The notes: a model not told the origin generated them from the letters alone. Positions 16,901 through 61,992 are shown, counted from the first letter of the stretch. The stretch: 64,000 bases of DNA from an uncultured euryarchaeote (GCA_964001175.1 CAXFAS010000002.1:66780-130779); one strand, 5' to 3'. Translations and numbers: made by a program.

Positions 16901-17000
16901 TATTTTGAGGAAGGTTCAGAGAAATGATATTGATGGTTTGTTAAAAGCAATTCATAATGCTGAAATCGAATATGCTAGGACAAGAAGATTCTGGGGTTAG
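13971..17000 (+). CDS. lhr: Lhr-family ATP-dependent DEAD/DEAH-box helicase
   Basis: APTGSGKT (motif I), DEVH (motif II), [26 protein letters not shown]. About 500 aa of Lhr-type C-terminal region with a CLKCK...CLKCKG zinc ribbon. Confidence 0.85.
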
Positions 17001-18064
17001 TTAGCCGAATTTTGTAAATTTATTCTTTCTGCTGCTTCAACAACGTCTCCTTCCTGCCACCAATCAACAGCGATAAATGTCGGCCTCTTACCATGTTGAT
17101 TCCAACATTCGTTCGCCCTTTCTACCAAGAAATCAACATCATTTGCTTCATCTGCTTGAGTAGGGTCTGCGAGTCCAACAGCATTACTTAGCCAATTATT
17201 CATATGGTAAACTTGTTGGTTTCCGTCACCTCTAAGAACATCACAGTTCATTTCAGAAGTACTCCTTTCACCGAAATTTGTTGTCCAGCTGTGTGTTAAG
17301 AAATCATGTATCCAAGGATGATTTGAATCACTCCCCTGCTCCCAAAAAATAACTACATTTGTTTTTTGATCAATCATCGATTGTAGAGTAGGCCAAGGTT
17401 CATTCATCTCATGAATGAAAACCTTGTCCATAATTCCTGAATCAATAAAAACCTGTTCTAAATGTTCGGGCTGTACATAATTTTCAACCAATATTGTTAC
17501 CACATCTTGAGGTTCAGATTCAATTTTATCATTAAGACTTGAAAGCCAGTCAACTGCACTAACATTGCCGTAATGACAAGGGCTTGCGCCTCTGGAATCA
17601 TCACCATGACAAAGCTTGACTTTACCTTCAGTCTCGTCATTCAGAGTCTCATAATGTGTATCTATCATAAAAGCCCTAATTCCTGCCTGCCATTGTGGGT
17701 TTAGACCTGTCCGATGATTACTTGCAGGGTAAAATATGCCATCATCTTCTGTTGCAAATGCATTATGTGTTTCAGGGAATGTTACATTATCATATGTCCT
17801 TAGACAGAGAATCAACATTCCATTACATGGTTTAGTGGGTTCCGGCTCCGGTTCGGGCTCTGGTTCTGGCTCCGGTTCGGGCTCTGGTTCTGGCTCCGGT
17901 TCGGGCTCTGGTTCTGGCTCTGGTTCGGGCTCAGGTTCAGGCTCAGTGTCAATGGTTGAATCATCATTTTCAGATTGATTTTTTCCAAGAGGGTCGGTAG
18001 GATCAATACAGCCCGAGAGTAACATGAGTAAGACAACTAGTAGAGTATTGAGTGTCCGGCCCAT
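16997..18064 (-). CDS. lipoprotein with (Glu-Pro)18 stalk and PLC-like phosphodiesterase (PI-PLC X-domain-like) catalytic domain
   Basis: Lipobox LLSGC after a signal peptide, then (EP)18. [24 protein letters not shown]...[15 protein letters not shown] resembles PI-PLC-X-like phosphodiesterases. Confidence 0.6.
17837..17944 (-). repeat. in-frame tandem repeat: 18 x 6 bp (GAR CCN = Glu-Pro), with an exact 24-bp unit repeated three times
   Basis: Plus strand reads ggYtcN x18. GGCTCCGGTTCGGGCTCTGGTTCT occurs at 17843, 17867 and 17891. Confidence 0.95.
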
Positions 18065-31200: not shown

Positions 31201-31317
31201 GAAATGCTTTTAGGAATATTTGGAATTTTAGTAATTGCAATCATTGTAGTAAGTGCCATGTTGCTTAGAAACAAGGATGATGATGATTTAGGTGGAGACC
31301 GTTTCGGATTTGAATAA
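28225..31317 (+). CDS. large secreted, C-terminally anchored surface protein (1030 aa) with three tandem cadherin/Ig-like repeats
   Basis: Signal peptide ...CSPLLASA|QI. Repeats each begin N-S/Q-A-P (NSAPQI, NQAPRL, NSAPEI) and carry DxxGDxxxxDxxYS-type motifs. C-terminal TM LLGIFGILVIAIIVVSAMLL plus a charged tail. Confidence 0.75.
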   Translation: MSKRLVSTIIVSFLIVCSPLLASAQITTADEPQINVLWILDDSGNNAHAYRVTFSDNASYEVDIEIDQIRNGSQIPTYFQQEWKSIDSNRVVDIYVNTTLLLGDEVHITVQINSVDGQIIVPVIGEREITIGTWNQPMDDHEIMLSTVWDLDQAYDNDDGNQGFFLDFEGQGWQKREGNIVNSWELGNGSLITLESTNGSTNNLSLILDSIWKNETIVGGVLTTQIFDARGHGLLSLVDDDGETQTHILANVSDAWLNRSMVGESISERLRLEATGILNVSSIEQSNESSTNIDGEVSVFYLETWDEDGVRRLQDQQFEALADLVIIEEGTRLDISLDGLTSSERWEDGIRTLHKEELIGSGTFGFEEQDNESSVMINGTIYDFHSLIEDGLTKIDNLHVDGDIAGDVQGSFGIVRYIEETGNQANASGEVFLVNVIHQESWFNLTGVNGGNFFDGAGIGANHNESWDYQVVQSEWDNRTVRLVWEETGADASSGDELPERSPIRIDATAPEAEEGLGNITISRETGLMPIPMIPGDNIRLNGQEGLVLVVEAESLSNDPRDGHNFHVVTWTGIYEGTSGGYASGAIIDQGPLKGLISSVIRTLEIPFGEENETAYLNETQLLERVLSPSVVTIEENSAPQIGEIFLQQGIVIGEGGSSSLLVANITDVDWNIDDVVADLTPIGGGLVEMNDRGLDGDQSVGDDIYSTIILVPGLEIGIIEITITATDKFGVTSQGVGEIEVVNQAPRLTSVEILPNVGYRGTVLVVNAEAYDGHGVSNISIDLRNYGGDLVPLIDNSGVWAGQISIPQGMPPGYQFIEFILEDGVGKIGTSSVWYQDQPNSLDPRGPHYISDEISVPVEIRVLNSAPEITVPENKIISRSESVTTEILEIQIFDADGVLNARADLGVFAPLGNDGVWTTMYDDGTNGDRVANDGNFSVQLSVRSSTPLGTHEVLVQAADNYDVVTSQVPISITVEDQTSIVPGLEDASLSTEMLLGIFGILVIAIIVVSAMLLRNKDDDDLGGDRFGFE

Positions 31318-41460: not shown

Positions 41461-42306
41461 TTATCGATGCTTCCATTCCGGAGTTTCACGATTAAGAAAT
41501 GCTTGAACACCTATTTCTTGATCTTCAGTATCAAAAATTTTGGCAAAATAGTCTGCTTCAACCGCAATACCTTCTTCTAAGCCTACTTCTAAGGCCGCTC
41601 TAATTACTGTTTTAGCAACAGCCATAGTACTCGAAGATTTACTGGAAATTAATTTGGCCATATTGATGGTAAATTCATATAATTCATCAGGAGAAACAAC
41701 ATGATTGACTAAACCAATTCTATTCGCTTCATTTGCATCTACCATCTCACCGGTCATGATTAATTCCATTGCTTTTCCATACCCTAGAAGTTTGACAAGT
41801 CTCTGAGTTGCTCCATAGCCTGGTATTAATCCTAGATTAATTTCAGGGGTTCCAAATTTAGATCGTTCACTTGCAATTCTTATGTCACAAGAACAAGCAA
41901 CTTCACAACCGCCACCAAGAGCAAATCCATCAATCATTGCAATTGTTGGCTTGCTGAGAGACCAAAGTGCTTCAACAGCATTATTCGAAAATTTAACCTT
42001 GATTTCATCGCTTTTCTTTCCTACAAATTCAGTAATATCCGCACCAGCAACAAAAGAATGCGGCTTCGCTCTTTTTCCTTCTTCTGGAGTTAACGGCTTC
42101 GCTCCAGTTAATACAACGCATCGTACAGAATCATCAGATTCGACCCATTGACAAATTTTCTTGATAGAATCCATTACCTCAGAATTCAACGAATTCAGTT
42201 TATTTGGTCGATTAATGGTTATCAATGCCACATTCCCTAGGTTAGAATTTTCTTCATCAGATGGAATCAATTCGACATTTACAACTTCGCTTTCTGGTAC
42301 GGCCAT
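41461..42306 (-). CDS. enoyl-CoA hydratase/isomerase (crotonase) family
   Basis: FVAGADI, AMIDGFALGGGCEVA, PEINLGLIPGYGATQRL. Confidence 0.85.
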   Translation of the reverse strand: MAVPESEVVNVELIPSDEENSNLGNVALITINRPNKLNSLNSEVMDSIKKICQWVESDDSVRCVVLTGAKPLTPEEGKRAKPHSFVAGADITEFVGKKSDEIKVKFSNNAVEALWSLSKPTIAMIDGFALGGGCEVACSCDIRIASERSKFGTPEINLGLIPGYGATQRLVKLLGYGKAMELIMTGEMVDANEANRIGLVNHVVSPDELYEFTINMAKLISSKSSSTMAVAKTVIRAALEVGLEEGIAVEADYFAKIFDTEDQEIGVQAFLNRETPEWKHR

Positions 42307-42390
42307 AGCAACCCCACAAGGATTGACTTCATGATATATGCGACGTTATGTTAAACCAATAGTAAAAAGTAAAGCATTCTTCGGTTGAAC

Positions 42391-43170
42391 ATGGGTGAAT
42401 CAAATACTCCTTTAGTAAAGGCAGTAGATATGGCTAAGAAATACGGTGATTTCATTGCATTACATCCCTTGAATGTGGAAGTTCACTCAGGAGAATTCTT
42501 CGGAGTTTTTGGACCTAATGGTGCAGGTAAATCTACTTTCATAAAGTTACTGACAGGGCAATTAAAACCGAGTAAAGGTTTGATTGAAGTACTTGGAATC
42601 AATGCTGTTGGCGATCCTCAAAAACTCAAAGCAAACATAGGAATAGTTCCTGAATCCGAGTCTCCACCATCATTTCTTACACCAGTTGAATTTCTAGAGT
42701 TTGTTGCTAAATTACGAAATATTGATGACTATAAGGGGCAAGTCGAATATTGGCTTGATTGGTTTGGATTAGAAGAAAAAAGGAATACGATGTGTAAGGA
42801 TTTGTCTAAAGGACAAAGACAGAAAGTAATGCTCTCTGCGGCTTTTATTCACAAACCAAAACTATTATTTTTAGATGAGCCATTTGCTAATTTAGACCCG
42901 ATTTATCAACGAAAATGTAGACAGTGGTTATTAGATCATGTCAATGAAGGCGGGACAATTTTTCTTTGTTCACATGTTTTAGAAATGGCTGAGAGAATGT
43001 GCAATAGGATGGCTATAATTAATGATGGAAAAGTTCTTGCAGCAGGTTCAGTTAGTGATTTGAAGTTATCAAATAAAGAAACTTTGGAAGATGTATTCAT
43101 AAGATTAGTTGGACGTTCGATAGAAGATGTTGAACGTATAAATGAAGAAGGTATCTCAGAGGAGGAGTAG
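42391..43170 (+). CDS. ABC transporter ATP-binding protein
   Basis: GPNGAGKST (Walker A), LSKGQRQK (signature), LLFLDEP (Walker B). An in-frame TTG at 42385 is also possible. Confidence 0.9.
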   Translation: MGESNTPLVKAVDMAKKYGDFIALHPLNVEVHSGEFFGVFGPNGAGKSTFIKLLTGQLKPSKGLIEVLGINAVGDPQKLKANIGIVPESESPPSFLTPVEFLEFVAKLRNIDDYKGQVEYWLDWFGLEEKRNTMCKDLSKGQRQKVMLSAAFIHKPKLLFLDEPFANLDPIYQRKCRQWLLDHVNEGGTIFLCSHVLEMAERMCNRMAIINDGKVLAAGSVSDLKLSNKETLEDVFIRLVGRSIEDVERINEEGISEEE

Positions 43171-43181
43171 AACTGGCTAAA

Positions 43182-44867
43182 ATGATAATATCTTCCAAGC
43201 ATTGGGATGATGTTAATTTTACCGAGCCAAGAGAGAGTCTAGGTACCAGTTCTCATGGGCAGAATCTTCTAACTCCAATCCGTGGTTGGAAATCATTCAA
43301 AGCAACTTTCAAAGTAATGTTCAAGGAGGAGTTTAGGAAAAACATTGAATTTGCCAAGGCTCGTCAAATAATCCTATTTCCGCTATTACTTTCCTTAATC
43401 ACGATGATTTCAACAGTCGGATTACAATTTTTAGTAGGCGATTCAGCTGCTCAAACTAGTGATATTGAATCTAAAACCTTTACTTGGCAAGAGTTGCGAT
43501 TTGCTCTTCATCTTCCTCTACTAATGTTCAGTTTAGGGATGGGGACATTTGCATTTATGGGCCGAGATGCTCTGATTAGAAGAACAGGAACTAAGAATTT
43601 CCTCCTTGCTTCTCCTGCATTACAACCATTACCAAATTCAATTGCTCATTATGTTTACTTCATCAAAGATTTATGTTTTTATGTTCTACTTATTCTGTCA
43701 CCGATAATTTTTGGAATGTTCTTGGGTATTTGTCTTGAATCGATTGCATCAATCAAAACTCCTCTCGAATTTTCTAGTTTGCCATGGACATGGATTGCTA
43801 TGACTATAACGCTGGCCCAGGGCTTAGTTTTCTCCTTTTTGGCATCTGCACTGTGGATGCGAGGTAGACCTTACACAATTTTGGGTCCGATATTCATTGT
43901 TATTTTTGGTATTCTAGCAGGTGTTGGAATTGTTGATTTAGATTGGATTTTACTTGGTTTGAAAGTTCAATCTTCTCAGAGCTTTTCAATTGCCTTTATT
44001 TCTTTAGTCGCCTGCTTGGCATTAGGTTTTCTTTCATCTAAATTAATCATTGATGATTTTGATGTTAGTGTGGTCGAAAAAGGAGACATGCTTGAACCCA
44101 TATATCAAAGATTGAATTTTTTGGGCAAGGGCGATGTAAGGCTAATAGTGGCAAAAGAGTTCGTCGATCTTTTTCGCTCTGGTTCGATTAAAAAGATGAC
44201 AGTATCTTATGCAATACCACTATTGGTTCTACTTGGAATGGCTTGGTTAATCGATTTTGCCGAGGCTCCAATCCCGATAAATCTGTTATCTTATGCGCCA
44301 TTTCTTGGATTCTTTGGTTTCAACTTCTATTCATGGCTAACTATTTTAGATTCCCCGGAATTCATGAATGGGTTGCCATTACGCGTTCCACAATTAATTA
44401 GAGCCAAGGTTATTGTATATTTCTTAGCTACTTCTTGGATATCCTTGATTTTCATTATTTTAATGGCGTGGCGTTTGGATGAGTGGGCTTCATTGCCGAC
44501 CAGTATCATCGTTATGTTTGCAAATTCGATTTATATTGTAGCATTGACTGCTTATCTAATGGGATTAAGGCCAAATCAAGCAATATTTGATGCTTCAATT
44601 ATGATTTGGTTTTGGATCGGCACGGTTCTTCCACTACTCGGATTATTCTTACTTTCATTTACTCAAGGAGATGTTTCATTGTATGGTAATTGGTGGGAGC
44701 GAGCATCTCAAGATGGTTTAGCTGCAACAGCTGCGATGTATGATGAAAGTTTAGTTCAGCAAGGATATATGGGTATGATTTTAATTTCTATTGGATTACT
44801 ATTTGCTTCAGCACTTTTATGGAAATTAATGGATAGACGATGGGGCAAAACTCATTTCATCAATTAA
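43182..44867 (+). CDS. large polytopic membrane protein, probable permease partner of the ABC ATPase
   Basis: 561 aa with at least 10 TM helices. Starts 11 nt after the ATPase stop. No specific motif recognised. Confidence 0.5.
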   Translation: MIISSKHWDDVNFTEPRESLGTSSHGQNLLTPIRGWKSFKATFKVMFKEEFRKNIEFAKARQIILFPLLLSLITMISTVGLQFLVGDSAAQTSDIESKTFTWQELRFALHLPLLMFSLGMGTFAFMGRDALIRRTGTKNFLLASPALQPLPNSIAHYVYFIKDLCFYVLLILSPIIFGMFLGICLESIASIKTPLEFSSLPWTWIAMTITLAQGLVFSFLASALWMRGRPYTILGPIFIVIFGILAGVGIVDLDWILLGLKVQSSQSFSIAFISLVACLALGFLSSKLIIDDFDVSVVEKGDMLEPIYQRLNFLGKGDVRLIVAKEFVDLFRSGSIKKMTVSYAIPLLVLLGMAWLIDFAEAPIPINLLSYAPFLGFFGFNFYSWLTILDSPEFMNGLPLRVPQLIRAKVIVYFLATSWISLIFIILMAWRLDEWASLPTSIIVMFANSIYIVALTAYLMGLRPNQAIFDASIMIWFWIGTVLPLLGLFLLSFTQGDVSLYGNWWERASQDGLAATAAMYDESLVQQGYMGMILISIGLLFASALLWKLMDRRWGKTHFIN

Positions 44868-44926
44868 TCTACTTTAGAATAAAAATTTAGGGGTTATATT
44901 AAGGGCGTCCGCCTTGACGAGAAATC

Positions 44927-45478
44927 ATGGGAAGAGTCCTTGCTGTGTGTGGTTTACCAGGTTCAGGGAAAGGTGAATTTGCATCAGTTATGGAAAGAAA
45001 TAAAATTCCTATTTTATCGATGGGTGATATGGTTAGAGCCGAAGTTTCAAGACTCGGATTAGAAGAGTCTCCAGGAATTTTTGGTGAAATTGCTGCACAA
45101 TTACGAGCCGAGTTTGGAGATGATGTTCTTGCAAAGAGACTTTGCAATGCGGTTGATGAATTACTTGATACAAATGATATTATTTTGATTGAAGGGCTTA
45201 GAGGAACTGCTGAATTTGATTTATTCAGTTCACGCTGGGGTGAGAAGTTTTCAACAATAGCCATTACTGCATCTCGCGAGATTCGGTTTGAACGAACTCA
45301 AACAAGAGGTCGTTCTGAGGATGGAGATATATCTGCCTTTGAAATTAGAGAAAAACGTGAAACCGGCTGGGGATTAGATGTTTTGATAGAGAGCGCTGAT
45401 ATCACTCTTCCCAACGAATCGAACCTTGAAGAATTTCATAATATGTGTCACAACTGGCTTCAAGAAATTAGAAATTGA
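44927..45478 (+). CDS. small P-loop nucleotide kinase-fold protein (archaeal UPF0200 / dephospho-CoA-kinase-like)
   Basis: VLAVCGLPGSGKGEF Walker A, SMGDMVRAEV, IEGLRG, RGRSEDGD. Confidence 0.5.
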   Translation: MGRVLAVCGLPGSGKGEFASVMERNKIPILSMGDMVRAEVSRLGLEESPGIFGEIAAQLRAEFGDDVLAKRLCNAVDELLDTNDIILIEGLRGTAEFDLFSSRWGEKFSTIAITASREIRFERTQTRGRSEDGDISAFEIREKRETGWGLDVLIESADITLPNESNLEEFHNMCHNWLQEIRN

Positions 45479-45596
45479 AAAGAAATCTCTTGGCTTTTTG
45501 TTTTGTAACGCAGGGCGACGATTTTCTTGTTAAATTTCAGCGAAGTGTTATAGTCGGCCGATGCGTGTGCTAGAATGCTTCGGCGAGGGATGATGT

Positions 45597-47120
45597 ATGG
45601 CGCGAAAAAGAGGGAGTAGAGGCAAACGCCAGAGAGCCCAGCAAAGAGCACAGTATGATGAACTGGATAAATACCCAGTTTTGCCACCTCATGCTTTCGC
45701 CAGAGTAGTCAGAGATAGGCAGACATTGAACATCATTTATCAGATTATTGAACCGCCCATGACGAAGAAAGAACAAGAGTATAGAGACGAGATTATGGAT
45801 ATTTTTATTCGTTCTCTTACTGCAAACATCGAAGAGATTGATGCTAATCCGGAAGCATATATCAGAACTGCAATGGATAAAGTAATCAAGTCATATGGTA
45901 TGAAAATAAATAAAAAATCCAAGTCTAAAATCTTCTATTATCTTCGAAGAGACCTGATCGGATATGGTCAAATGGATGTTTTGATGAATGATGCTAACGT
46001 TGAAGATATTTCCTGTGATGGTACCAATGTACCTATATTTGCTTATCACCGTAAATTCGAATCCGTCGAAACAACTTGTGTTTGGCCTAATGACGATTTA
46101 TTAGAATCATATGTAATTAAACTGGCGCAGAGGTGTGGCAAGCATATTTCAGTTGCAGACCCACTTCTCGATGCAACATTGATGGATGGTTCTAGAATTG
46201 TAATGAAACTTGGCCATGAAGTTTCTACTCGAGGTTCTTCGTTCTGTATTCGTAGATTCAAAGATGATCCTTTTTCGCCTGCAGATATTATTGCATTTAG
46301 AACAATGTCATCATTGATGGTCGCTTATCTTTGGATTGCTTTCCAAAATGAAGTTCCAATGCTGTTTGTAGGCGGTACCGCATCTGGTAAAACTACTACT
46401 CTAAACGCTATGTGTATCTTCATTCCATGGCAAATGAAAATTGTTTCAATCGAATCTACTCGTGAAGTTAACATTCCTCAGCCAAACTGGGTCCCTGGTC
46501 TTACAAGACAAGGTTTTGGTGGAGAATCAACCGAGGGTGTAATTGGTGAGTTCGAACTACTAAAAGCCGCTCTTCGTGAACGGCCAGAGTATATCATCGT
46601 GGGAGAAATTCGTGGTGCTGAGGCATATGTTCTATTCCAAGCCATGGCAACAGGACACTGTGCTTATTCGACAGTTCACGCCGATTCAGTACCATCTTTA
46701 GTTCACAGGCTTGAAAACAAACCCATCGATATTCCTCGTGTTCTTCTTCCTGCTCTAGAAGCCTGTTCGATTCAGATTCAAACAAGAATTAACGGAAAGC
46801 GTGTTAGAAGAACAAAGCAACTTGTAGAGATTGTTGGTATCGACCCTAACTCACTTGAAGTGATCACCAATGAAGTATTTAGATGGGATGTCACTACAGA
46901 TGACTTCATTTTCAGCGGTAAATCCTATGTTCTTGAGAAAATCATGGTTAAGTTGAATTACTCCCAAGACGATATGAGGAGAGAACTCAGGACTAGAAAG
47001 AGAATACTTGAGTGGATGGTTTTGAATGATATTAGGAAGGCTGACCAAGTGTCACAGATCGTTACAGAATATTATGTGAGACCTAATGAGATTTTAGCAC
47101 GTGTTGACGGACTACGTTGA
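45597..47120 (+). CDS. FlaI/ArlI-PilB-like type II/IV secretion-family ATPase
   Basis: VGGTASGKTTTLNA (Walker A), EYIIVGEIRGAEA (Walker B / Asp box), ATGHCAYSTVHA (His box). Confidence 0.9.
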   Translation: MARKRGSRGKRQRAQQRAQYDELDKYPVLPPHAFARVVRDRQTLNIIYQIIEPPMTKKEQEYRDEIMDIFIRSLTANIEEIDANPEAYIRTAMDKVIKSYGMKINKKSKSKIFYYLRRDLIGYGQMDVLMNDANVEDISCDGTNVPIFAYHRKFESVETTCVWPNDDLLESYVIKLAQRCGKHISVADPLLDATLMDGSRIVMKLGHEVSTRGSSFCIRRFKDDPFSPADIIAFRTMSSLMVAYLWIAFQNEVPMLFVGGTASGKTTTLNAMCIFIPWQMKIVSIESTREVNIPQPNWVPGLTRQGFGGESTEGVIGEFELLKAALRERPEYIIVGEIRGAEAYVLFQAMATGHCAYSTVHADSVPSLVHRLENKPIDIPRVLLPALEACSIQIQTRINGKRVRRTKQLVEIVGIDPNSLEVITNEVFRWDVTTDDFIFSGKSYVLEKIMVKLNYSQDDMRRELRTRKRILEWMVLNDIRKADQVSQIVTEYYVRPNEILARVDGLR

Positions 47121-47132
47121 TGAGGGGATTTT

Positions 47133-48152
47133 ATGGAATTAACCGCTTGGCAGAGATTCTGTAATAGAATCCTAGGTAGGTTGGTTAAGAAGAGAGCCAG
47201 AAGGGATAAAAATCTCTCCGACAATCTAGTCAAAGGTTCAATGGGAATTATGCCCGAGGTATACTTGTCGACTGTAATCATGACCTCTATGGCCATTCTT
47301 CTAATTTGTTGGGGCCTAGTATCTCTTTTCTTTATTCCCGAAATAGGAGTAATTGCTTTTTGGGAAGGTTTGCAAGACCCAGCCACAATAAATCCTTGCT
47401 TAGATTGGGAATATTGGGAGCCAGAATTGGTAGATAAATCAAAACCTGGCAATGGGTGTCCGGATTATGCAACTAGAGTTTTCCCACCTTTCTTGGAGGT
47501 TCTAATCATTGGTCTTGGAGGAATAATTATTCCTTATTCTGGATACTTATTAGTTCGAGGTGGGGCAAAGCGTGAAGCAGCACGTAGAGGTTCTCAAATT
47601 GAAAAGTACCTTCCATATGCTGCATCTTACACTGCTGCAATGTCTGCAGCAAATGCGACACCTGCGAAAATTTTCCGTTCATTGGCCATGAATAGAGATA
47701 TTTACGGCGATGTTGCGGACGATGCTGGTTTGATTTATCGCGACGTAACCTTACTTGGGTACGACTTAATCACAGCCATAAAAATGAGTGTAGATAGAGC
47801 CGCTTCGGTTTGGCTGACGGAGTTTTTCCAAGGAATGGTAGGTACATTAACAGCCGGAGGACATCTGAAATTATACTTCTTGAACAGGGCAGAACATTAC
47901 ATGAGGGAAAATAGAACTAGACTTCAACAATTCCTAGAGTCGATTGCTTTGCTTGCAGAATCATACATTGTAGTCGCTGTAGCAATGCCTCTGTTTTTGA
48001 TAGTCATGCTGGTAATTATGTTCTGGGTTTCTGGTTCTGGCGCCCAAATGTCTGAAGGTATGCTATATGGCATTGTTTTAGGATTCATTCCGATGATTCA
48101 CGTTGCATATGCAGTATTAGTTTACACCAGCAGTAAGGAACAAGAGATGTAG
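47133..48152 (+). CDS. FlaJ/TadB-TadC-like platform protein, single T2SSF domain (first of two)
   Basis: KYLPYAASYTAAMSAANATPAKIFRSLA...IYGDVADDAGLIYRDVTLLGYDLITAIK is a T2SSF-type cytoplasmic domain flanked by TMs. GAGGGG lies 6 nt upstream of the ATG. Confidence 0.75.
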   Translation: MELTAWQRFCNRILGRLVKKRARRDKNLSDNLVKGSMGIMPEVYLSTVIMTSMAILLICWGLVSLFFIPEIGVIAFWEGLQDPATINPCLDWEYWEPELVDKSKPGNGCPDYATRVFPPFLEVLIIGLGGIIIPYSGYLLVRGGAKREAARRGSQIEKYLPYAASYTAAMSAANATPAKIFRSLAMNRDIYGDVADDAGLIYRDVTLLGYDLITAIKMSVDRAASVWLTEFFQGMVGTLTAGGHLKLYFLNRAEHYMRENRTRLQQFLESIALLAESYIVVAVAMPLFLIVMLVIMFWVSGSGAQMSEGMLYGIVLGFIPMIHVAYAVLVYTSSKEQEM

Positions 48153-48163
48153 GGGGTGATTCA

Positions 48164-49783
48164 ATGGCTAAAAAGAAGAAGAAATTGGTTGTTGAATTAG
48201 ATTTACCTAAGGACGATAAAACATTGAAGAATCTATACATCATACTTTTCTTTTCAATTATAATCGGGCTTTCATCTGGGATTATGTGGGCGACTAATTC
48301 CGGTTTTATACCGACTACCAACGGAGAGCCCATGTTCACAAATATTTACTGTGGAGCGACTTCTTCGGATGAAGCTGGCAATAGTTACCAAGATGAATTC
48401 AATTCAGCGCAAAAACCATCTTACAAAGCAAATGAATCATGTGCGATTTTGAGAGATAGTCCCGATCAGTTAACATGGTCTGAACAACCTTGGGTAGATT
48501 TCCAGTCGAAAGGAAAAACATTTGATGTTCCTGGGATTTCAGCCGAAGATAAAATAGGAGTTGTAGTTGAACAACCATTAGAAATGACTTGTGATGTTTT
48601 GGCAAACCAACCAACAGAATATACAGCAGCGATTCGTGATTCGGATGGCAATACTATTCGATTCTTCAACGGGACCACCGGTAAATCCAGCGATGTATGT
48701 TTGATTGAAATAGAAAATATTGATCCTGGTGAAAATTACCAAGTGGTGTTCTTTTCCGCTCAAGAAGGTCAAGAATTATCATCTGCAGAATTTGAAATAA
48801 CAGTGGACTATTATGATGGAATACCTGCAAATATGAATAATAAGTCATTTTGGCTTGGCCCAAAAGTAGAACTTGGACCATTTGATTTTAGACCTACAAT
48901 TTTCCTCAATTTCTTTGGATTAACATTCTTTTTCTTAATATATCCCGCTTCTTTTTATTGGGAAAGAGTTGAGAAAAAGAAAAATGAAGTTGAAGAAAAA
49001 TTCCCAGACTTCCTTAGAGATATGGCCGAGTATTGGAAAGGGGGTTTATCCATGACAGTGGCGGTCCAAACTTTAGCTAAATCAGAATATGGGGCGCTAA
49101 ATGACGAAGTTAAGAAGATGTCTGATCAGTTGAGTTGGGGGATTAAATTCAGTGATGTCATCAAACAATTCTCTGAGCGTGTAGGTACTCCATTGGTCAA
49201 GAGGGCTATCACCTTGATTGCTGAGGCTGATAGAGCAGGTGGAAAGATTTCGGATATTCTTGTTACTGCAGCGAACGACTCTCGAGAGATTAAGTTCCTA
49301 GAAGGAGAAAGAAGAAGAGCAATTGGTTCGTATATCGCTGTTATTTGGACCTCCTATTTCGTTTTCTTAGGGGTTATCACCCTATTAGGTAGAATCTTTA
49401 TTCCTGCTATTGCTAAATCAAACTCGGGTGATGAAGGGTCAGGAGACTCTGGTGGTGCTAATATTGGAAACATGACAATTAGGTCAATTGACCCACTTTT
49501 CTTCGTTACAGTATTCTATTACGGTGTGACCATGCAGGCGATTGGAAATGGGTCGATGGCTGGCTTAATGGCTAATGGTCGTTTTTCAGCAGGTTTCAAA
49601 CATTCAGGGATGATGATTATTGCTGCTTTGATTGCATTCAATTTACTTGTATTCAATCCTGAACTAATTGGTGATTCTGCTTATGAAATTACTAAATCAA
49701 TTACCACCTCAAAAGCATCCTACACGGTTGGATTAAACCCTTCAGGTGGAGCATTTATTCCAACTCCAATGAAGTGGGGTTGA
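48164..49783 (+). CDS. FlaJ/TadB-TadC-like platform protein, single T2SSF domain (second of two) with ~230-aa extracytoplasmic insertion
   Basis: FPDFLRDMAEYWKGGLSMTVAVQTLAK...GALNDEVKKMSDQLSWGIKFSDVIKQF is T2SSF-like. N-terminal TM followed by a Cys-containing soluble domain. GGGGTGAT lies 4 nt upstream of the ATG. Confidence 0.7.
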   Translation: MAKKKKKLVVELDLPKDDKTLKNLYIILFFSIIIGLSSGIMWATNSGFIPTTNGEPMFTNIYCGATSSDEAGNSYQDEFNSAQKPSYKANESCAILRDSPDQLTWSEQPWVDFQSKGKTFDVPGISAEDKIGVVVEQPLEMTCDVLANQPTEYTAAIRDSDGNTIRFFNGTTGKSSDVCLIEIENIDPGENYQVVFFSAQEGQELSSAEFEITVDYYDGIPANMNNKSFWLGPKVELGPFDFRPTIFLNFFGLTFFFLIYPASFYWERVEKKKNEVEEKFPDFLRDMAEYWKGGLSMTVAVQTLAKSEYGALNDEVKKMSDQLSWGIKFSDVIKQFSERVGTPLVKRAITLIAEADRAGGKISDILVTAANDSREIKFLEGERRRAIGSYIAVIWTSYFVFLGVITLLGRIFIPAIAKSNSGDEGSGDSGGANIGNMTIRSIDPLFFVTVFYYGVTMQAIGNGSMAGLMANGRFSAGFKHSGMMIIAALIAFNLLVFNPELIGDSAYEITKSITTSKASYTVGLNPSGGAFIPTPMKWG

Positions 49784-49787
49784 TAAT

Positions 49788-50228
49788 TTGCGTAAAGATG
49801 AAAATGCCCAAGTTCATATCCTTGAGATGTTGACATTATTTTGGCTTTTTTTTATGTCTGCCACCTTTTTGATAAGAATTGACGTTCCTGATTCACCATC
49901 AATTGCCCATGATTCTTCATTGGAAACAGCGGGGGAATCTGCCTTCTTGTATGGCTTAGGGCTTGACGCAGAAGTTGAAGGGGAAAATCGGTTGGCTGAA
50001 TTACTCAATAATAGTGATTTTGATGGAACCTGTGAACTTCTTCAAGAGGCTATTGCTAGTGGCAAGGAAGGTAATTGCTGGTTAGCTAAGAATAGTGCAA
50101 CATCATCGCCATATGGCCTAGTTGGTTCTCCTTCAGGTTCCACTTTTGCTGTTCATAAATTAGTAGTAGTCGATGGTGATTTATGGACTATTACCCTAGA
50201 TATTTGGAGTACCGGAGGTGGTGCTTGA
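49788..50228 (+). CDS. candidate type IV pilin-like protein (class III signal-peptide-like N-terminus)
   Basis: N-terminus (TTG start) RKDENAQVHILEMLTLFWLFFMSATFLI has a charged head, A-Q, then a hydrophobic helix with Glu, as in archaeal prepilins. GGGG lies upstream. Confidence 0.4.
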   Translation: MRKDENAQVHILEMLTLFWLFFMSATFLIRIDVPDSPSIAHDSSLETAGESAFLYGLGLDAEVEGENRLAELLNNSDFDGTCELLQEAIASGKEGNCWLAKNSATSSPYGLVGSPSGSTFAVHKLVVVDGDLWTITLDIWSTGGGA

Positions 50229-50671
50229 TGTATCTAAGAGAGAAAAATTGTACCGATAGGGATGCAGCACAAATGCTTCTTGCAACAGGTGTAGTACTAC
50301 TTCTTTCACTTCTTTCTATGGCTGTATTCAGTGTTAAAGTTGCTGGAATTACTCAGTCTAACGATCCTTCTTCAAATGGTGTGATTCAAACTACTGATGA
50401 AGTGATTGACGCAATCCCATTACTGATTGAACATCGTACAATTACTTGGATTAATGCAGGTGTTGAAAGAATTGAAGCAGCTGAACTTTCAGTCGATAGT
50501 GTACATGATGATTTATTGCACCATGGTGAATTAAGGGGTGTTGAGGTTAAAATTCTTGATTTTATAGTATCTGATGTTGATGGAACAACATTGTTAGTAA
50601 CAGGGGAGTTAGGCATATCAGATAGTAGTTCAACACTTAGAACAAATATTTCATTCACTATTTCTGCTTAG
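50228..50671 (+). CDS. candidate type IV pilin-like protein (second)
   Basis: ATG overlaps the previous stop (TGATG) and GGAGGTGGTG lies 4 nt upstream. N-terminus MYLREKNCTDRDAAQMLLATGVVLLLSLLSMAVF follows the same charged-AQ-hydrophobic design. Confidence 0.4.
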   Translation: MYLREKNCTDRDAAQMLLATGVVLLLSLLSMAVFSVKVAGITQSNDPSSNGVIQTTDEVIDAIPLLIEHRTITWINAGVERIEAAELSVDSVHDDLLHHGELRGVEVKILDFIVSDVDGTTLLVTGELGISDSSSTLRTNISFTISA

Positions 50672-51365
50672 TACGGTTTTCATTCCATGCTAAGTCAAGT
50701 AGATGTTCAATTCGTTCAGCATCATCTTTGACTCTTGAGATATCAACTATGGGCCAATTTGAAATCTTAGACCTCTCAAGTAAACCTTCTTGAATACTCC
50801 TTATTCTAGAGAAGTTAGCTAGATATCTGTCCGCTCTTCTAAAGGAATTTGCATCTCTTGAGCGGAGCATCTCTTGATGCTTATTTTCTTCACCAACCGC
50901 TAAAATTACCCCTAGGGCTATTCCCCCAGCATCTCTCCAAGGGGCCAGTAATTTTTCACTTGGGACAATATGTACACCTTCCAATAACAAATCGATTCCC
51001 TCTCGCAATGCACGATTTATGGTAGCCTCAATTCCTGATTCAACGGACTGACATGTATCCAGCCAATCGATAATAGGATCATTCGCTGAACCGATTGAGA
51101 AGGACGAACGGTGAAGGGCCGATTGTGCACCTTCTTGGTCACAACTTCTCATAATTTCACGAATTGCATCTGTTGATATTATTCTAGCGAATTTGCTTTT
51201 TGCAGCGATTTTGAGAGAAGCCGTAGATTTACCAGATCCAGTTGCTCCAGCAATAATTAGTAAGCGGGGGGCACGGTCTGCGATAGTTCTAGCAGTTGCT
51301 TGAGCCATCCCCACCTTACGCGCCATGTATTGCTTTGAGTGGTCTTTACTCATGAGTGTTGTCAC
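50658..51365 (-). CDS. 2-phosphoglycerate kinase-like P-loop protein
   Basis: IIAGATGSGKST, IISTDAIREIMR, LLLEGVHIVP match the archaeal 2-PGK family pattern. Confidence 0.6.
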   Translation of the reverse strand: MTTLMSKDHSKQYMARKVGMAQATARTIADRAPRLLIIAGATGSGKSTASLKIAAKSKFARIISTDAIREIMRSCDQEGAQSALHRSSFSIGSANDPIIDWLDTCQSVESGIEATINRALREGIDLLLEGVHIVPSEKLLAPWRDAGGIALGVILAVGEENKHQEMLRSRDANSFRRADRYLANFSRIRSIQEGLLERSKISNWPIVDISRVKDDAERIEHLLDLAWNENRTKQK

Positions 51366-51443
51366 ATTAATTTAGAAATTATTGCTTTTTTGAAGTATTC
51401 AATCGAAGCGAATACCTTTGAACGGTCACTTCATGGATGGTTT

Positions 51444-52880
51444 ATGAGCGCACAAAAAATGCTGATTGGCGGACAATGGGTTGATAGTGGAAATGGGGAT
51501 ACAAGCAACGTAATCAACCCTGCAAATGACGAGGTTATAGCGACAGTACCTAAGGCCACAATTCAAGATGTTGAAGATTGTATATTTGCATCTCGTAATG
51601 CCTTCTTAGATTCTTCTTGGAAAAACATGGACCCTGCACAAAGAGGCAGAATCCTCAATAAAATGGCTGCAGCAACTTATTCCAATGCCAAAGAATTAGC
51701 CAAAATAGAATCGGAAAATAACGGTAAGACTTTTCGTGAAGCATTGTCTGAAATTCGTTATGGAGCATGGACATTGGAATATTTCGCTGGACTTTCAGAT
51801 AAGATTGAAGGAAGTACTATTCCAGTTCCAGGAAATAGGTTGAACTATACATTAAGACAACCTTTAGGAGTTACTGCTCATATCGTTCCTTGGAATTTCC
51901 CACTTCAATTAGCCATTCGTTCCATTGCTCCTGCTCTAGCAGCAGGTTGTACAGTAATTGCTAAACCTGCTTCTTGGACTCCACTATCATTACTGGCTTG
52001 GGCTAGAAAAATGGAGGAGGCTGAAGTGGGTCTTCCTTCAGGAGTGTTACAGGTTATTACTGGTTCAGGTGGATTGATCGGTGATGCTTTAGCAGGACAT
52101 TCAGGAATAGATGGCGTCGTGTTAACTGGCGGTGTGCCAACGGGTCAAACAGTTATGGCAAAGGCTAGTGAGAATCTTACACCAGTTACTCTTGAACTTG
52201 GGGGTAAAGGTGCAAATATTGTATTCCCTGATGCTAATTTAAAATATGCAGCTAAGGCAATTTGTTTTGGAATTTTTATGAATGCTGGACAGATGTGCTG
52301 GGCTGGTTCAAGATTAATAGTACACGAGGATGTTCATGATGAACTGGTTGATGCAGTAGTTGCTGAAGTAGCAAAATGGAAAGTTGGGCCTGGAATGGAA
52401 GAAGGTGTAAGAATTGGAAGTTTGGTACACAAGAATCATCGTGATGAGGTAATAGAAAAGTTACATTCTGGTCTAAAAATGGGCGGCACTGTAGTTTGTG
52501 GAGGAAATCCGTTAGAAGGCGAAGGGGCTTTTATGGAAGCAACAGTTGTAACAGATGTTTCATCTGAAAATATCCTGTTCAAAGATGAGTTATTCGGGCC
52601 TGTATTATCAGTCACCAAGTTTACTGAAGATTCAGAGGCTCTTGAACTTGCTAATGATACCCCATTTGGATTATTAAATGGGATATGGACAAATAATCTA
52701 AGTCGTGCTCATAATTTAGCTAGAGATGTACAATCTGGAATGGTTTCAATCAATGAGTATCCAATTACTTTCCCTCAAACCGCATTTACAGGTTGGAAAC
52801 AATCTGGAATTGGAATTGAACAAAGCCAAGATGCACTTAGATTTTATACCAAAGTCAAGAATGTAAATATCAAACTTTGA
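51444..52880 (+). CDS. NAD(P)-dependent aldehyde dehydrogenase
   Basis: IVPWNFPL, LELGGKGANIV (catalytic Glu), FMNAGQMCWAGSR (catalytic Cys), ELFGPV. ATG at 51444 (MSAQKMLIGGQWV). Confidence 0.9.
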   Translation: MSAQKMLIGGQWVDSGNGDTSNVINPANDEVIATVPKATIQDVEDCIFASRNAFLDSSWKNMDPAQRGRILNKMAAATYSNAKELAKIESENNGKTFREALSEIRYGAWTLEYFAGLSDKIEGSTIPVPGNRLNYTLRQPLGVTAHIVPWNFPLQLAIRSIAPALAAGCTVIAKPASWTPLSLLAWARKMEEAEVGLPSGVLQVITGSGGLIGDALAGHSGIDGVVLTGGVPTGQTVMAKASENLTPVTLELGGKGANIVFPDANLKYAAKAICFGIFMNAGQMCWAGSRLIVHEDVHDELVDAVVAEVAKWKVGPGMEEGVRIGSLVHKNHRDEVIEKLHSGLKMGGTVVCGGNPLEGEGAFMEATVVTDVSSENILFKDELFGPVLSVTKFTEDSEALELANDTPFGLLNGIWTNNLSRAHNLARDVQSGMVSINEYPITFPQTAFTGWKQSGIGIEQSQDALRFYTKVKNVNIKL

Positions 52881-52889
52881 GGTGAAATT

Positions 52890-53672
52890 TTGACGATTGA
52901 AATCGAAGATTTAGAAATAGGAATTCGTAAAATTAAGATGGCAGGACAAAGTTCTGCACAGTCTTTTTCCTTAGAATTTTTACCAAGTATTGCTGATGCG
53001 ATCGATAAAGCTTTGAGAGATGTCTCAGTAAAAGCGATTATACTTACTGGAGAAGGTAAATTCTTTTCTGCGGGAGCAGATATTAACGCCTTCGCCAAAT
53101 CTATCGAGGATGGTAATTCACCACAATTAATACGTGATTTAACTGGCATTTTACACCCATTACTGATTAGAATGCGCCAATCACCGACAATTTCTGTCGC
53201 TGCAATTAATGGTGCATGTGCGGGTGGAGGCCTTGGTTTGGCCCTTGCCTGTGATTTCCGTATCGGTTCAAGTAATGCTAAAATGGCAGCCTCTTATTCA
53301 GGTATGGGTTTATCTCCTGATGGAGGGACAACATGGCTTCTTCCAAGATTAGTTGGTGTTCAAAAAAGTCGTAAATTTTTCTTGGAGAATTCAATTTGGT
53401 CTGCTCAACAAGCAGTTGATTATGGTGCAATTGACGAACTTGTTGAACCTTCTAAATTAATCGAAAGAAGTTGCGAAGTTGCTCAAAAATGTAGTTCTTG
53501 GGGCATGCATAGTAAGGAGGCTACAAAACATCTACTCGATGTGCAATCGGTAAATGACTTTGAGACACATCTAATGCATGAGAGGACATTAATTGAAGCA
53601 GCAGGTACGACAAATGACTTCAAAGAAGGGGTATCCGCTTTTCTCGAAAAGAGAAAACCAAAGTTTGATTGA
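52890..53672 (+). CDS. enoyl-CoA hydratase/isomerase (crotonase) family
   Basis: FSAGADI, AAINGACAGGGLGLALACD. TTG start with GAGGTGA 5 nt upstream. Confidence 0.8.
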   Translation: MTIEIEDLEIGIRKIKMAGQSSAQSFSLEFLPSIADAIDKALRDVSVKAIILTGEGKFFSAGADINAFAKSIEDGNSPQLIRDLTGILHPLLIRMRQSPTISVAAINGACAGGGLGLALACDFRIGSSNAKMAASYSGMGLSPDGGTTWLLPRLVGVQKSRKFFLENSIWSAQQAVDYGAIDELVEPSKLIERSCEVAQKCSSWGMHSKEATKHLLDVQSVNDFETHLMHERTLIEAAGTTNDFKEGVSAFLEKRKPKFD

Positions 53673-54560
53673 TCACTCCGGTATATCAGTTTCTTCAGCG
53701 CTTCCACTGGACCAATCATAAATCCCTTTACCGGATTTTTTACCTAATCTTCCTTGGGAAACTAATTTCTCAAGAAGTGGATGAGGTGTGTAAGAGTCAT
53801 CATTGAAAGACTCTTTCAAATTTAACAGTATATCTCTTCTAACATCTAATCCAACTAAATCAGTTAATGCCAATGGGCCCATTGGATGCTTATATCCAAG
53901 AACCATTGCAGTATCGATATCCTTTGCACTTGCAACACCATCAGCAAGCATCCTGATCGCTTCATTTCCAAGTACGACTCCAAGTCTAGAAGTTGCAAAA
54001 CCTGGGACATCGTTGACTAAAATAGTAGTTTTACCCATAATTTCTCCAGCAGTAGTCGCAGAATTTATTGTTTCATCTGAGCATGAGTCGTGCTTGATTA
54101 ATTCAAGTAATTTCATAATTGGAACTGGATTGAAGAAATGCATTCCAATTACTTTTTCAGGTTTTCCAGAAGCCTCAGCAATTTTGCTAATCGATAGTGA
54201 TGAAGTATTGGTTCCAAGGATACATTCTGGCTTTGTCAAAGAACCCAAGCGTTGGAAAATATCACATTTTAGATCCATGATTTCAGGAACTGCTTCAATA
54301 ACCATATCGGCATTCTTCACAGCGTCAGAGAGGTCTGACACTGGGAATAAATTTGCAGCCCATTGTTCTTTTTGTTGCTCAGTTGTTTTTCCTCTAGCAA
54401 TACCTTTATTCCAGAAAGAATCAATATTATTCATTCCTCTTTCCAAACCATCACTGAACGCATCGAAAAGATTTGTTTTCCAGCCACTCTGGGCACATAC
54501 CTGGGCAATACCAGCACCCATTGTTCCAGCACCAATTACAGCAACAGTCCTAATCTCCAT
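53673..54560 (-). CDS. 3-hydroxyacyl-CoA / 3-hydroxybutyryl-CoA dehydrogenase
   Basis: VAVIGAGTMGAGIAQV Rossmann motif, GTNTSSLS, HFFNPVPIMKLLE, PGFATSRL. Confidence 0.9.
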   Translation of the reverse strand: MEIRTVAVIGAGTMGAGIAQVCAQSGWKTNLFDAFSDGLERGMNNIDSFWNKGIARGKTTEQQKEQWAANLFPVSDLSDAVKNADMVIEAVPEIMDLKCDIFQRLGSLTKPECILGTNTSSLSISKIAEASGKPEKVIGMHFFNPVPIMKLLELIKHDSCSDETINSATTAGEIMGKTTILVNDVPGFATSRLGVVLGNEAIRMLADGVASAKDIDTAMVLGYKHPMGPLALTDLVGLDVRRDILLNLKESFNDDSYTPHPLLEKLVSQGRLGKKSGKGIYDWSSGSAEETDIPE

Positions 54561-61125: not shown

Positions 61126-61992
61126 ATGAGCGACCTTTATGGATTGAAACTGGAGCCTATGGCTAATAAATTAGTAAATTACGGAGTAACAAATAATGGA
61201 ATTGCAGTTATTGAACTGACTTCTGATTCAGCGGGTGCGCCGCTTGAAGGTCCAAACGACCGTTCCCCTAACACATATACTCACGGAATGATGCGTGATA
61301 TTGATGAAGCGATTGTTAAAGCGAGATTCGATGATGATGTCACCTGTATTGTTCTAACTGGAAATGGTGCCTCTTTCTTTTCTGCCGGAGCATCCATCCA
61401 GATGCTTAACAGTGTCACTCCTGGTTTCAAGTATAATTTCTGCCTACACGCTAATGAGACCCTTTCTCGTCTTGAACAAACTGCAAAATTAGTTATCTGT
61501 GCGATTAACGGTCATGCAGTTGGTGGTGGTCTAGAAATTGCTATGGCTGCAGATATCAGAATTGCAAGAAAAAATGCTGGTAAAGTCGGACTTCCTGAAA
61601 TAAACCTCGGAGTTTTAGCAGGAACTGGTGGGACTGCACGTTTAACAAGATTAATCGGAAAAGCAAAAGCGCTTGAGATGATGGTTACTGGCGAACTAAT
61701 GTCTTTCGAGGATGCACATTCTTGCAATCTAATTAATCATATTTGGGAAGGTAGTCCTGAGGATTTCAGAAGAGATATTCTTGATTGGTGCTCTCAATTC
61801 ACACTTCCAAATAAGGCTGTTAAGGCTGTAGGTAATATCAAGAGGTCTTGTCAAACAGGTCCTGAGATTCCTTTCGAATACCATTTGGCATTAGAGAGAG
61901 AGTTACAGGCTGCATTGTTTAACAGTAGTGATGCTAAGGAAGGAATTGCAGCATACGTAGAAAAGAGAGTTGCGAACTTCACTGGAAACTGA
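61126..61992 (+). CDS. enoyl-CoA hydratase/isomerase (crotonase) family
   Basis: FFSAGASI, AINGHAVGGGLEIAMAAD, PEINLGVLAGTGGTARL. Confidence 0.85.
   Translation: MSDLYGLKLEPMANKLVNYGVTNNGIAVIELTSDSAGAPLEGPNDRSPNTYTHGMMRDIDEAIVKARFDDDVTCIVLTGNGASFFSAGASIQMLNSVTPGFKYNFCLHANETLSRLEQTAKLVICAINGHAVGGGLEIAMAADIRIARKNAGKVGLPEINLGVLAGTGGTARLTRLIGKAKALEMMVTGELMSFEDAHSCNLINHIWEGSPEDFRRDILDWCSQFTLPNKAVKAVGNIKRSCQTGPEIPFEYHLALERELQAALFNSSDAKEGIAAYVEKRVANFTGN

Follow-up and report, generated by a model that had tools for sequence, protein, structure and literature searches.

A five-gene type IV pilus-like operon with a split platform in Marine Group IIa archaea

The DNA analysed here is a stretch of 64,000 nucleotides (nt) from an uncultured euryarchaeote (GCA_964001175.1, CAXFAS010000002.1:66780-130779), referred to as the window in the following, with positions counted from its first letter. 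It has a GC content of about 38%, and its host lineage is Candidatus Poseidoniaceae (Marine Group IIa, MGIIa). At positions 45597-50671 the window carries a genuine operon of five genes encoding a type IV pilus-like surface machine, which is separate from the archaellum. The operon and its upstream region comprise the following features:

45479..45596, plus strand: upstream intergenic region of 118 nt with a presumed promoter and a GAGGG ribosome-binding site
45597-47120, plus strand: PilB/FlaI-family ATPase, 507 residues (Pfam T2SSE, 8.8e-26)
47133-48152, plus strand: N-half platform protein (N-terminal half of TadC/ArlJ), 339 residues, one T2SSF domain, about four transmembrane (TM) helices
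48164-49783, plus strand: C-half platform protein, 539 residues, one T2SSF domain (residues 283-407)
49788-50228, plus strand: small protein 1, prepilin-like, 146 residues, TTG start
50228-50671, plus strand: small protein 2, prepilin-like, 147 residues, ATG start

The five genes are spaced by 12, 11, 4 and -1 nt, and purine-rich Shine-Dalgarno-like motifs (GAGGG, GAGGGG, GGGGGTGAT, GGGG and GGAGGTGGTG) are found 5-10 nt 5' of each start. For small protein 2, the mechanical open reading frame (ORF) begins at 50183, but the ATG at 50228 fits the ribosome-binding site and the orthologues; this ATG overlaps the stop codon of small protein 1 as TGATG. The 118-nt region is the only sizeable gap on the plus strand ahead of five genes lying at most 12 nt apart, and the end of the last gene overlaps a convergent gene by 14 nt. 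It is these tight gaps, the preceding intergenic region and the convergent gene at the end that give the five genes the look of one operon. An earlier sequence-only reading of this DNA had described five tightly packed genes on the same strand, each with its own purine-rich ribosome-binding site, and had assigned them to a FlaI/PilB-type ATPase, two single-T2SSF platform proteins and two prepilin-like proteins. All ORFs were recovered at the coordinates listed above, and the assigned functions were borne out, with Pfam matches to T2SSE and T2SSF.

The translated ATPase has intact Walker A (GGTASGKTT) and Walker B (YIIVGEIRG) motifs as well as an intact His box (ATGHCAYSTVHA). Besides T2SSE, the protein shows a weak match to Pfam PilB3_C, and its homologues bear PilB3-like Pfam domains. 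Among solved structures, the closest is GspE of Archaeoglobus fulgidus (AF0659 or afGspE; 2OAP), which scored 403 bits in an alignment of near full length (residues 24-502), followed by FlaI of Sulfolobus (265 bits) and CpaF of Caulobacter (125 bits). In NCBIfam, the ArlI equivalog NF058587 was the best model with 396 bits (cut-off 550), the bindosome protein BasE the second-best with 190 bits (cut-off 1000), and the TadA-family model reached 128 bits (cut-off 373). AF0659 (gi 11498267) is placed in clade 2 in Table S2 and the tree of Makarova et al. (2016; PMC4858521), together with the ATPases of Aciduliprofundum; this clade is the “halo pilus” group of Denise et al. (2019). The top plasmid matches in a tblastn search were haloarchaeal ATPases with 42-44% identity, and in the two plasmid loci inspected, L081 and L082, the ATPase gene adjoins DUF7288, DUF7266 and DUF7289 genes. 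Judged by the best match to AF0659 and by these haloarchaeal relatives, the ATPase is assigned to the euryarchaeal clade 2 (afGspE/PilB3-like) type. The orthologue from Marine Group III (MGIII; L073:9821-12049) is longer (742 residues) and has a K/E/R-rich C-terminal tail of about 240 residues, which has no counterpart in the protein of Marine Group II (MGII).

The platform is encoded in two genes. Its N-half carries a Pfam T2SSF domain at residues 166-292 (1.2e-11) and matches positions 68-223 of the 555-position ArlJ profile, while the C-half (T2SSF, 1.8e-13) matches positions 312-449 of the same profile; for both proteins, a TM scan predicted 4-5 TM segments. An assembly error, which the earlier reading had named as a possible source of the split, is excluded, and so is a sequencing error, because a stop codon closes the N-half ahead of the C-half in 76/76 loci with both halves, 47 of which have the two halves in different reading frames. 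The C-half starts with a basic cytoplasmic N-terminus and continues with TM1, an insert of about 200 residues, TM2, the T2SSF domain and further TM segments. The insert (residues 43-245) contains four cysteines, is predicted to be extracytoplasmic and varies between lineages, with a weak SpaA/prealbumin-like match (0.012) at residues 157-216. It is shorter in the MGIII orthologue of 427 residues, and no sequence relative of the C-half was found in the PDB.

The split platform is also present in MGIII (L073), in a high-GC metagenome-assembled genome (MAG) of the Thermoplasmata (L077) and in an unrelated low-GC metagenome contig (L086), whereas the haloarchaeal relatives have a fused platform of 679 residues with two T2SSF domains. 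According to Makarova et al. (2016; PMC4858521), two tadC genes are present in every clade 1 (Epd) locus and in many euryarchaeal loci of clade 2. Furthermore, Denise et al. (2019) trace the Tad/Epd platform pair to gene fission and note such pairs in “some archaeal systems.” The earlier premise, namely that a platform split in two represents the bacterial Tad arrangement, is therefore not supported, also in view of Aciduliprofundum, which combines a FlaI-type ATPase with two TadC proteins, and the split alone is no mark of Tad/Epd ancestry.

Both small proteins and all of their orthologues display the layout of a class III (prepilin) signal peptide, i.e., a leader, an invariant [AG]-Q junction and a hydrophobic helix. 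In small protein 1, a leader of 7 residues precedes the motif A/G|Q-x-H-x-x-E and a hydrophobic helix of about 20 residues. All 39 distinct orthologue N-termini share Ala or Gly at position -1, Gln at +1, His at +3 and Glu at +6, and the MGIII protein starts with K-G-Q-M-H-V-L-E. Small protein 2 has a leader of 14 residues followed by A/G|Q-M/L-L-L-x-x-G and a hydrophobic helix; here, Gly or Ala at -1, Gln at +1 and Gly at +7 were found in 43/43 distinct N-termini, and the MGIII start reads N-K-A-Q-L-L-L. The glutamine at +1 of both proteins resembles that of the EppA substrates which Szabo and co-workers reportedly described in 2007. A six-frame regular-expression scan of the window for class III-like N-termini returned only these two proteins as credible candidates.

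Small protein 1 alone gave no match to Pfam or NCBIfam, and when homologues were searched for with a diverse alignment, the list was confined to close relatives from MGII, which were all annotated as “hypothetical” and had no Pfam domains; haloarchaea were not reached. An exhaustive profile search of 1.84e9 representative proteins yielded 71 matches, of which the weakest full-length ones have in common the start, Q-x-H-x-x-E, and the end, W-Y/H-E-x-R. Three of the profile matches (P0353, P0361 and P0368; E-values 1e-11 to 2e-6) pass the gathering score of 27 for Pfam DUF7288 (PF23959) with 34.6, 28.7 and 27.7 bits, respectively. A direct hhalign comparison of small protein 1 with a haloarchaeal DUF7288 member was weak (E-value 8e-4, probability 24.5%). 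By sequence, small protein 1 is thus classed as a divergent DUF7288 member through a transitive link over these intermediates. An AlphaFold2 (AF2) model from an alignment of 15 sequences (mean predicted local confidence, pLDDT, of 75) comprises a helix at residues 5-28, three short helices and a four-stranded sheet.

Two further observations concern this protein. Cysteines C82 and C97 are invariant in all MGII orthologues aligned and absent in MGIII and more distant relatives, and may form a lineage-specific disulfide in the globular head. Many public gene calls (clusters P0132-P0137, P0131 and P0146-P0150) are only 133 or 124 residues long and begin at an internal Met, probably since the actual start codon is frequently TTG or GTG. 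As the shortened calls drop the leader and the Q-x-H-x-x-E motif, pilin surveys based on signal peptides would miss small protein 1.

Small protein 2 alone likewise had no match in Pfam or NCBIfam. DUF7261 was matched by 7/15 members, all below threshold (best 6e-3), and hhalign with a haloarchaeal DUF7261-like protein gave an E-value of 6.5e-5 and a probability of 64%, with the likeness residing mainly in the N-terminus. Its single-sequence AF2 model was poor (pLDDT 48.6) and unusable. With respect to gene order, a protein with an [AG]Q[LMI]L N-terminus follows the DUF7288-like gene in L081 and in the unrelated metagenome contigs L084-L086, and in L086 this pair stands behind two single-T2SSF genes.

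The conservation of the locus was assessed by scanning one genome per GTDB species, which gave 584 relatives, of which 80 loci were kept. These comprise MGIIa and MGIIb at 82-98% ATPase identity and MGIII at about 57%; homologues of the ATPase with 80-98% identity number in the thousands and are labelled Candidatus Poseidoniaceae, Poseidoniales or “marine group II/III euryarchaeote.” A tblastn comparison with the five proteins and their neighbours revealed the order ATPase, N-half, C-half, small protein 1, small protein 2 in 64/64 MGII loci of sufficient length, and the same operon core was found in MGIII. Most MGII loci also share the flanking genes of the window; the synteny with the adjoining ABC system does not extend to MGIII and is less tight in some MGIIb loci. 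Within MGII, identity drops along the operon from 82-98% for the ATPase over 54-93% (N-half), 47-85% (C-half) and 35-86% (small protein 1) to 32-77% (small protein 2).

Synonymous divergence (dS) was saturated (>1.4) even against the closest species representative, so that the comparison of rates rests on nonsynonymous divergence (dN). The dN values were 0.018 for the ATPase, 0.045 and 0.104 for the N- and C-half of the platform, and 0.073 and 0.139 for small proteins 1 and 2; in the same comparison, the neighbouring ABC ATPase and aldehyde dehydrogenase showed 0.057 and 0.075, respectively. All five genes are real and under purifying selection, as reflected by low dN at saturated synonymous sites. 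The ATPase is the slowest-evolving gene of the neighbourhood and changes 3-4 times more slowly than the adjoining housekeeping genes.

Among the closest known systems is the haloarchaeal PilB4-type clade 2 system (Fig. 4B of Makarova et al., 2016), represented by the plasmid locus L081 of Halobaculum halophilum, which was found by tblastn of the ATPase against plasmids. There, the gene order is ATPase (989 residues), fused TadC, DUF7287, DUF7288 (MRAQAHTLEG), a DUF7261-like protein (..ERAQMFLIGG..), DUF7266 and DUF7289. The haloarchaeal N-termini of the RAQAHTLE and RGQL type, which the sequence-only reading had quoted, are thus real: the DUF7288 protein of Halobaculum starts with MRAQAHTLEG and the next protein contains ..ERAQMFLIGG... 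Both systems have a FlaI-family ATPase of the same clade and a T2SSF platform, and in both, a DUF7288 protein with Q-x-H-x-L-E and a protein with A-Q-M-x-L-x-x-G follow the platform in the same order. In contrast, only two of the five pilin-like genes are present in the MGII locus, as DUF7287, DUF7266 (the probable major pilin) and DUF7289 are absent from the locus and the window. Moreover, the MGII platform is encoded by two genes instead of one fused gene, its C-half carries the extra insert of about 200 residues, and the ATPase (507 versus 989 residues) lacks the N- and C-terminal extensions of the haloarchaeal protein. In MGIII, weakly DUF7289-like (8.8e-5) and DUF7266-like (6.6e-3) genes are located upstream of the ATPase, neither of which is found in the MGII locus.

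In A. fulgidus, the source of the closest solved ATPase structure, the platform is fused and the pilin set lies at a separate locus, unlike in MGII. This pilin locus comprises arCOG06117, arCOG04652, arCOG06552, arCOG03926 (the predicted major pilin) and arCOG02911; Makarova et al. (2016; PMC4858521) predict that arCOG04652 and arCOG06552 belong to the pilin family. Judged by gene order and size only, the series probably corresponds to DUF7287, DUF7288, DUF7261, DUF7266 and DUF7289, respectively. A literature search returned no paper on DUF7266, DUF7287, DUF7288 or DUF7289. In other lineages, related N-termini carry large C-terminal domains, e.g., a homologue of small protein 2 with 533 residues (L077:12772-14373) or, in L084 (144-1994 and 2998-5520), a DUF7266+DUF2341 protein of 616 residues and a DUF7287+CARDB protein of at least 841 residues. 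Such fusions of pilin-like N-termini to large domains suggest tip adhesins in those lineages. Aciduliprofundum boonei, which likewise belongs to the Thermoplasmatota, shares the combination of a FlaI-type ATPase with two half-size TadC genes (332 and 290 residues), but its locus contains an arCOG02911 pilin and a second ATPase instead of the DUF7288/DUF7261-like pair.

With the bacterial Tad (Flp) and the Methanococcus Epd systems, the locus has in common a platform encoded as two single-T2SSF genes and the lack of a retraction ATPase gene. It differs from them in the low similarity of its ATPase to CpaF (125 bits) and in the position of the glutamate at +6 instead of +5. Furthermore, neither locus nor window holds a Flp/Epd-type major pilin of 50-70 residues, a TadZ/FlaH-like ATPase, an EppA/TadV peptidase gene or a secretin. 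The label “Tad/Epd-like,” which had been given to the locus before, was consequently dropped, considering the 403 bits to AF0659 against 265 to FlaI and 125 to CpaF and the lack of a Flp-size pilin, TadZ/FlaH-like ATPase and EppA. The view that it is no archaellum operon, by contrast, was upheld. Homologous ATPase and platform families and subunits of a putative class III type are shared with the archaellum; its archaellin, ArlF/G and ArlH genes are, however, missing from the window, the ATPase remains under the ArlI threshold (396 versus 550 bits) and the platform is split. The locus lacks FlaH and archaellins, occurs in both MGII families and in MGIII, and is thus distinct from the archaellum; with AF0659 as best match and the ArlI and TadA-family models below their cut-offs, it is neither archaellum- nor Tad/Epd-like. 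Finally, the Sulfolobus bindosome (BasEF and BasABC) resembles the locus in having an ATPase, a platform, few small pilin-like proteins and no known long fibre, but the scores to BasE (190 bits, cut-off 1000) and BasF (27 and 20 bits, cut-off 1300) are low and no class III sugar-binding proteins were seen nearby.

Pfam scans of essentially all window ORFs of at least 120 residues found no archaellin, FlaF/G/H (ArlF/G/H), Peptidase_A24 or FleN/MinD, in line with what the sequence-only reading had stated for archaellin, FlaF/G/H and prepilin peptidase genes. ArlCDE and ArlX are also absent from the window, which reaches 45 kb upstream and 13 kb downstream of the locus. The only GxGD-type protease of the window is a protein of 740 residues (19975-22197, plus strand), whose last ~200 residues form a presenilin-type signal-peptide peptidase (PF06550, 1.4e-49) and whose first ~520 residues match no family. 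We rejected it as prepilin-processing peptidase, as it belongs to a different family and no evidence of a link was found.

Taken together, the locus is probably a reduced clade 2 (PilB4/afGspE-type) type IV filament machine of MGII, in which the two small proteins serve as minor or priming pilins and the major pilin and the peptidase are encoded elsewhere. The small proteins are read in this way because, in haloarchaea and Archaeoglobus, their relatives occur together with another protein that is predicted to be the major pilin, and because related N-termini are fused to adhesin-type domains in other lineages. By homology with characterised type IV filament machines, a hexameric PilB-like ATPase would dock on the cytoplasmic T2SSF domains of a heteromeric platform, whose N- and C-half may stem from a gene fission common to MGII, MGIII and other lineages. 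The two co-translated small proteins would be made as preproteins with class III signal peptides, and a prepilin peptidase encoded elsewhere would cut after the invariant Ala/Gly, baring the invariant Gln. ATP hydrolysis would raise the pilin-like subunits from the membrane into a helical fibre, which the small proteins would start or cap, with the bulk subunit, if any, supplied in trans. The role of the fibre would be adhesion to surfaces and particles or cell-cell contact, not swimming. We infer signal-peptide cleavage, filament formation, a minor-pilin role and adhesion as the most likely properties of the system. Deletion of pilB1-C1 in Haloferax volcanii, an operon associated with clade 2-type pilins by Makarova et al., caused an adhesion defect (PMC6491452); this is the only experimental hint for the clade 2-type pilin class, and an indirect one.

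Several points weigh against this interpretation. The residue at position -2 is K, R, D or E in only 18/39 distinct N-termini of small protein 1 and 20/43 of small protein 2; it is N and A in the two copies of the window, which therefore fail the strict FlaFind rule. The leaders are acidic near the putative cleavage site, which is unusual. The model of small protein 1 had no significant structural match in the PDB (Foldseek, best E-value 0.014, with ribosomal and dynein-light-chain noise), and the assignment of small protein 2 as DUF7261-like, based on sequence, is weak and made tentatively. A prepilin peptidase, a PilA/DUF7266-type major pilin and a FleN/MinD gene are all missing from the 64-kb window, and, to our knowledge, no filament has ever been seen on MGII cells.

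The surroundings of the operon comprise several further genes. Directly upstream (42385-45478, plus strand) lies a block encoding an ATP-binding cassette (ABC) ATPase, a protein of 561 residues with about 12 TM segments and no Pfam family, and an AAA_17/adenylate-kinase-like protein of 183 residues. Almost all MGII loci have this block next to the pilus operon; in L054/L055 it is shifted by about 7 kb, and MGIII lacks it. A bindosome-like functional tie of this transporter to the operon was considered and set aside, because the transporter lacks a binding protein and does not keep its place beside the operon in MGIII and some MGIIb loci. Two very large predicted surface proteins are encoded in the window, namely one of 1690 residues with a CARDB domain (8822-13894, plus strand) and one of 1030 residues without Pfam match (28225-31317, plus strand). 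Each combines a Sec-type signal peptide with a TM anchor at the C-terminus and an acidic tail; neither carries a class III signal, and both could possibly be adhesins or S-layer-type proteins. Unrelated to the pilus are the beta-oxidation-type genes around the locus (41461-42306, minus strand; 51339-54560; 61126-61992), which encode three enoyl-CoA hydratases, a 3-hydroxyacyl-CoA dehydrogenase and an aldehyde dehydrogenase. Elsewhere in the window, a DisA-type diadenylate cyclase (DAC) domain (2808-3656, plus strand; 1.3e-10) suggests c-di-AMP signalling in the host archaeon, and a lipoprotein-like protein (16997-18064, minus strand) features a long (Glu-Pro)n repeat right after the signal/lipobox region.

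Other readings of the machine differ in what it would build. It is rather unlikely that the ATPase and the split platform assemble the two small proteins into a short membrane-proximal stub, i.e., a pseudopilus, instead of a long adhesive fibre; such a stub would place or release other surface proteins in the manner of a bindosome or type II secretion system, or take up DNA. The presence of only two pilin-like genes and the lack of a major-pilin family gene in locus and window would fit a stub, as would the predicted extracytoplasmic insert of the C-half and the rank of BasE as second-best NCBIfam match, although BasE and BasF, with 190 and 27 bits, miss their cut-offs of 1000 and 1300 by a wide margin. 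A pseudopilus would also fit the occurrence of the locus in every MGII locus examined, including those of the Thalassarchaeaceae (MGIIb), which have genomes of about 1.4 Mb and are mostly free-living (PMC6864105). In addition, the ATPase, evolving 3-4 times more slowly than neighbouring housekeeping genes, suggests a core instead of a conditional role. On the other hand, the large surface proteins of the window carry Sec-type and not class III signals, the adjoining ABC system lacks a substrate-binding protein, appears exporter-like and loses its synteny in MGIII and, in part, in MGIIb, and relatives in other lineages accompany full pilin sets and adhesin fusions. The broader proposal that the minimal machine of MGII and MGIII builds a short pseudopilus with a core envelope role (surface-protein placement, secretion or DNA uptake) and no adhesive pilus is, in our view, unlikely and put forward as a speculation; it would explain both the presence in every MGII locus examined, including reduced, non-archaellated MGIIb, and the slow ATPase.

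Alternatively, small proteins 1 and 2 could themselves be the structural subunits of a self-contained minimal pilus operon, with no further pilins involved. The compact operon with its TGATG translational coupling, the constant presence of both genes, their size of about 140 residues within the range of major pilins and the pilin-like model of small protein 1 (N-terminal helix, alpha/beta head with a four-stranded sheet) are in favour of this. It is nevertheless improbable, given that the homologous pair in haloarchaea and Archaeoglobus is accompanied by the predicted major pilin arCOG03926 (probably equal to DUF7266), that MGIII keeps DUF7266-like and DUF7289-like genes beside the same core, and that, in other lineages, N-termini of the family are joined to large adhesin-like domains, as is typical for minor or tip pilins. 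Automatic annotations (“flagellar protein FlaI”) would make the locus a part or remnant of the archaellum (ArlI/ArlJ), consistent with the JGI and UniRef names of the homologues and with the ArlI equivalog as best NCBIfam model. This is hardly credible: the score of 396 bits falls short of the cut-off of 550, afGspE outscores FlaI among the solved structures, and no archaellin, ArlF, ArlG, ArlH, ArlCDE or ArlX gene is found in the window, whose flanks most MGII loci keep. Moreover, the locus is present in Thalassarchaeaceae, which mostly lack flaB/H/I/J (PMC6864105; PMC6461757).

With respect to novelty, the sequence-only reading went too far: the class of the system, although functionally unstudied in experiments, was already catalogued in 2016, and the split platform already described. 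The locus is an MGII/MGIII member of this catalogued clade 2 class of type IV pili, reduced to two pilins and with a fissioned platform, and reveals no new kind of machine.

MGII are the most abundant archaea of ocean surface waters and have never been cultured, and their attachment to particles and phytoplankton is an ecological question. MGII genomics treats “flagella” genes (flaI, flaJ) as an adhesion/motility trait separating MGIIa from MGIIb (PMC6461757; PMC6864105). Orellana et al. (PMC6864105) found flaB/H/I/J loci in all MGIIa MAGs and in only one MGIIb MAG, and reported “additional” flaJ, flaI and tadC genes in MGIIa. The operon described here is a second type IV machine, unrelated to the archaellum, in both MGII families and in MGIII, and therefore flaI/flaJ marker counts and KEGG-style annotation can conflate the two. 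With five genes and two candidate subunits, it offers a compact target for heterologous expression, metaproteomics and cryo-electron tomography. Should the machine build a pseudopilus with a core envelope role, the most abundant surface archaea of the ocean would possess an archaeal type IV filament that forms a functional class of its own.

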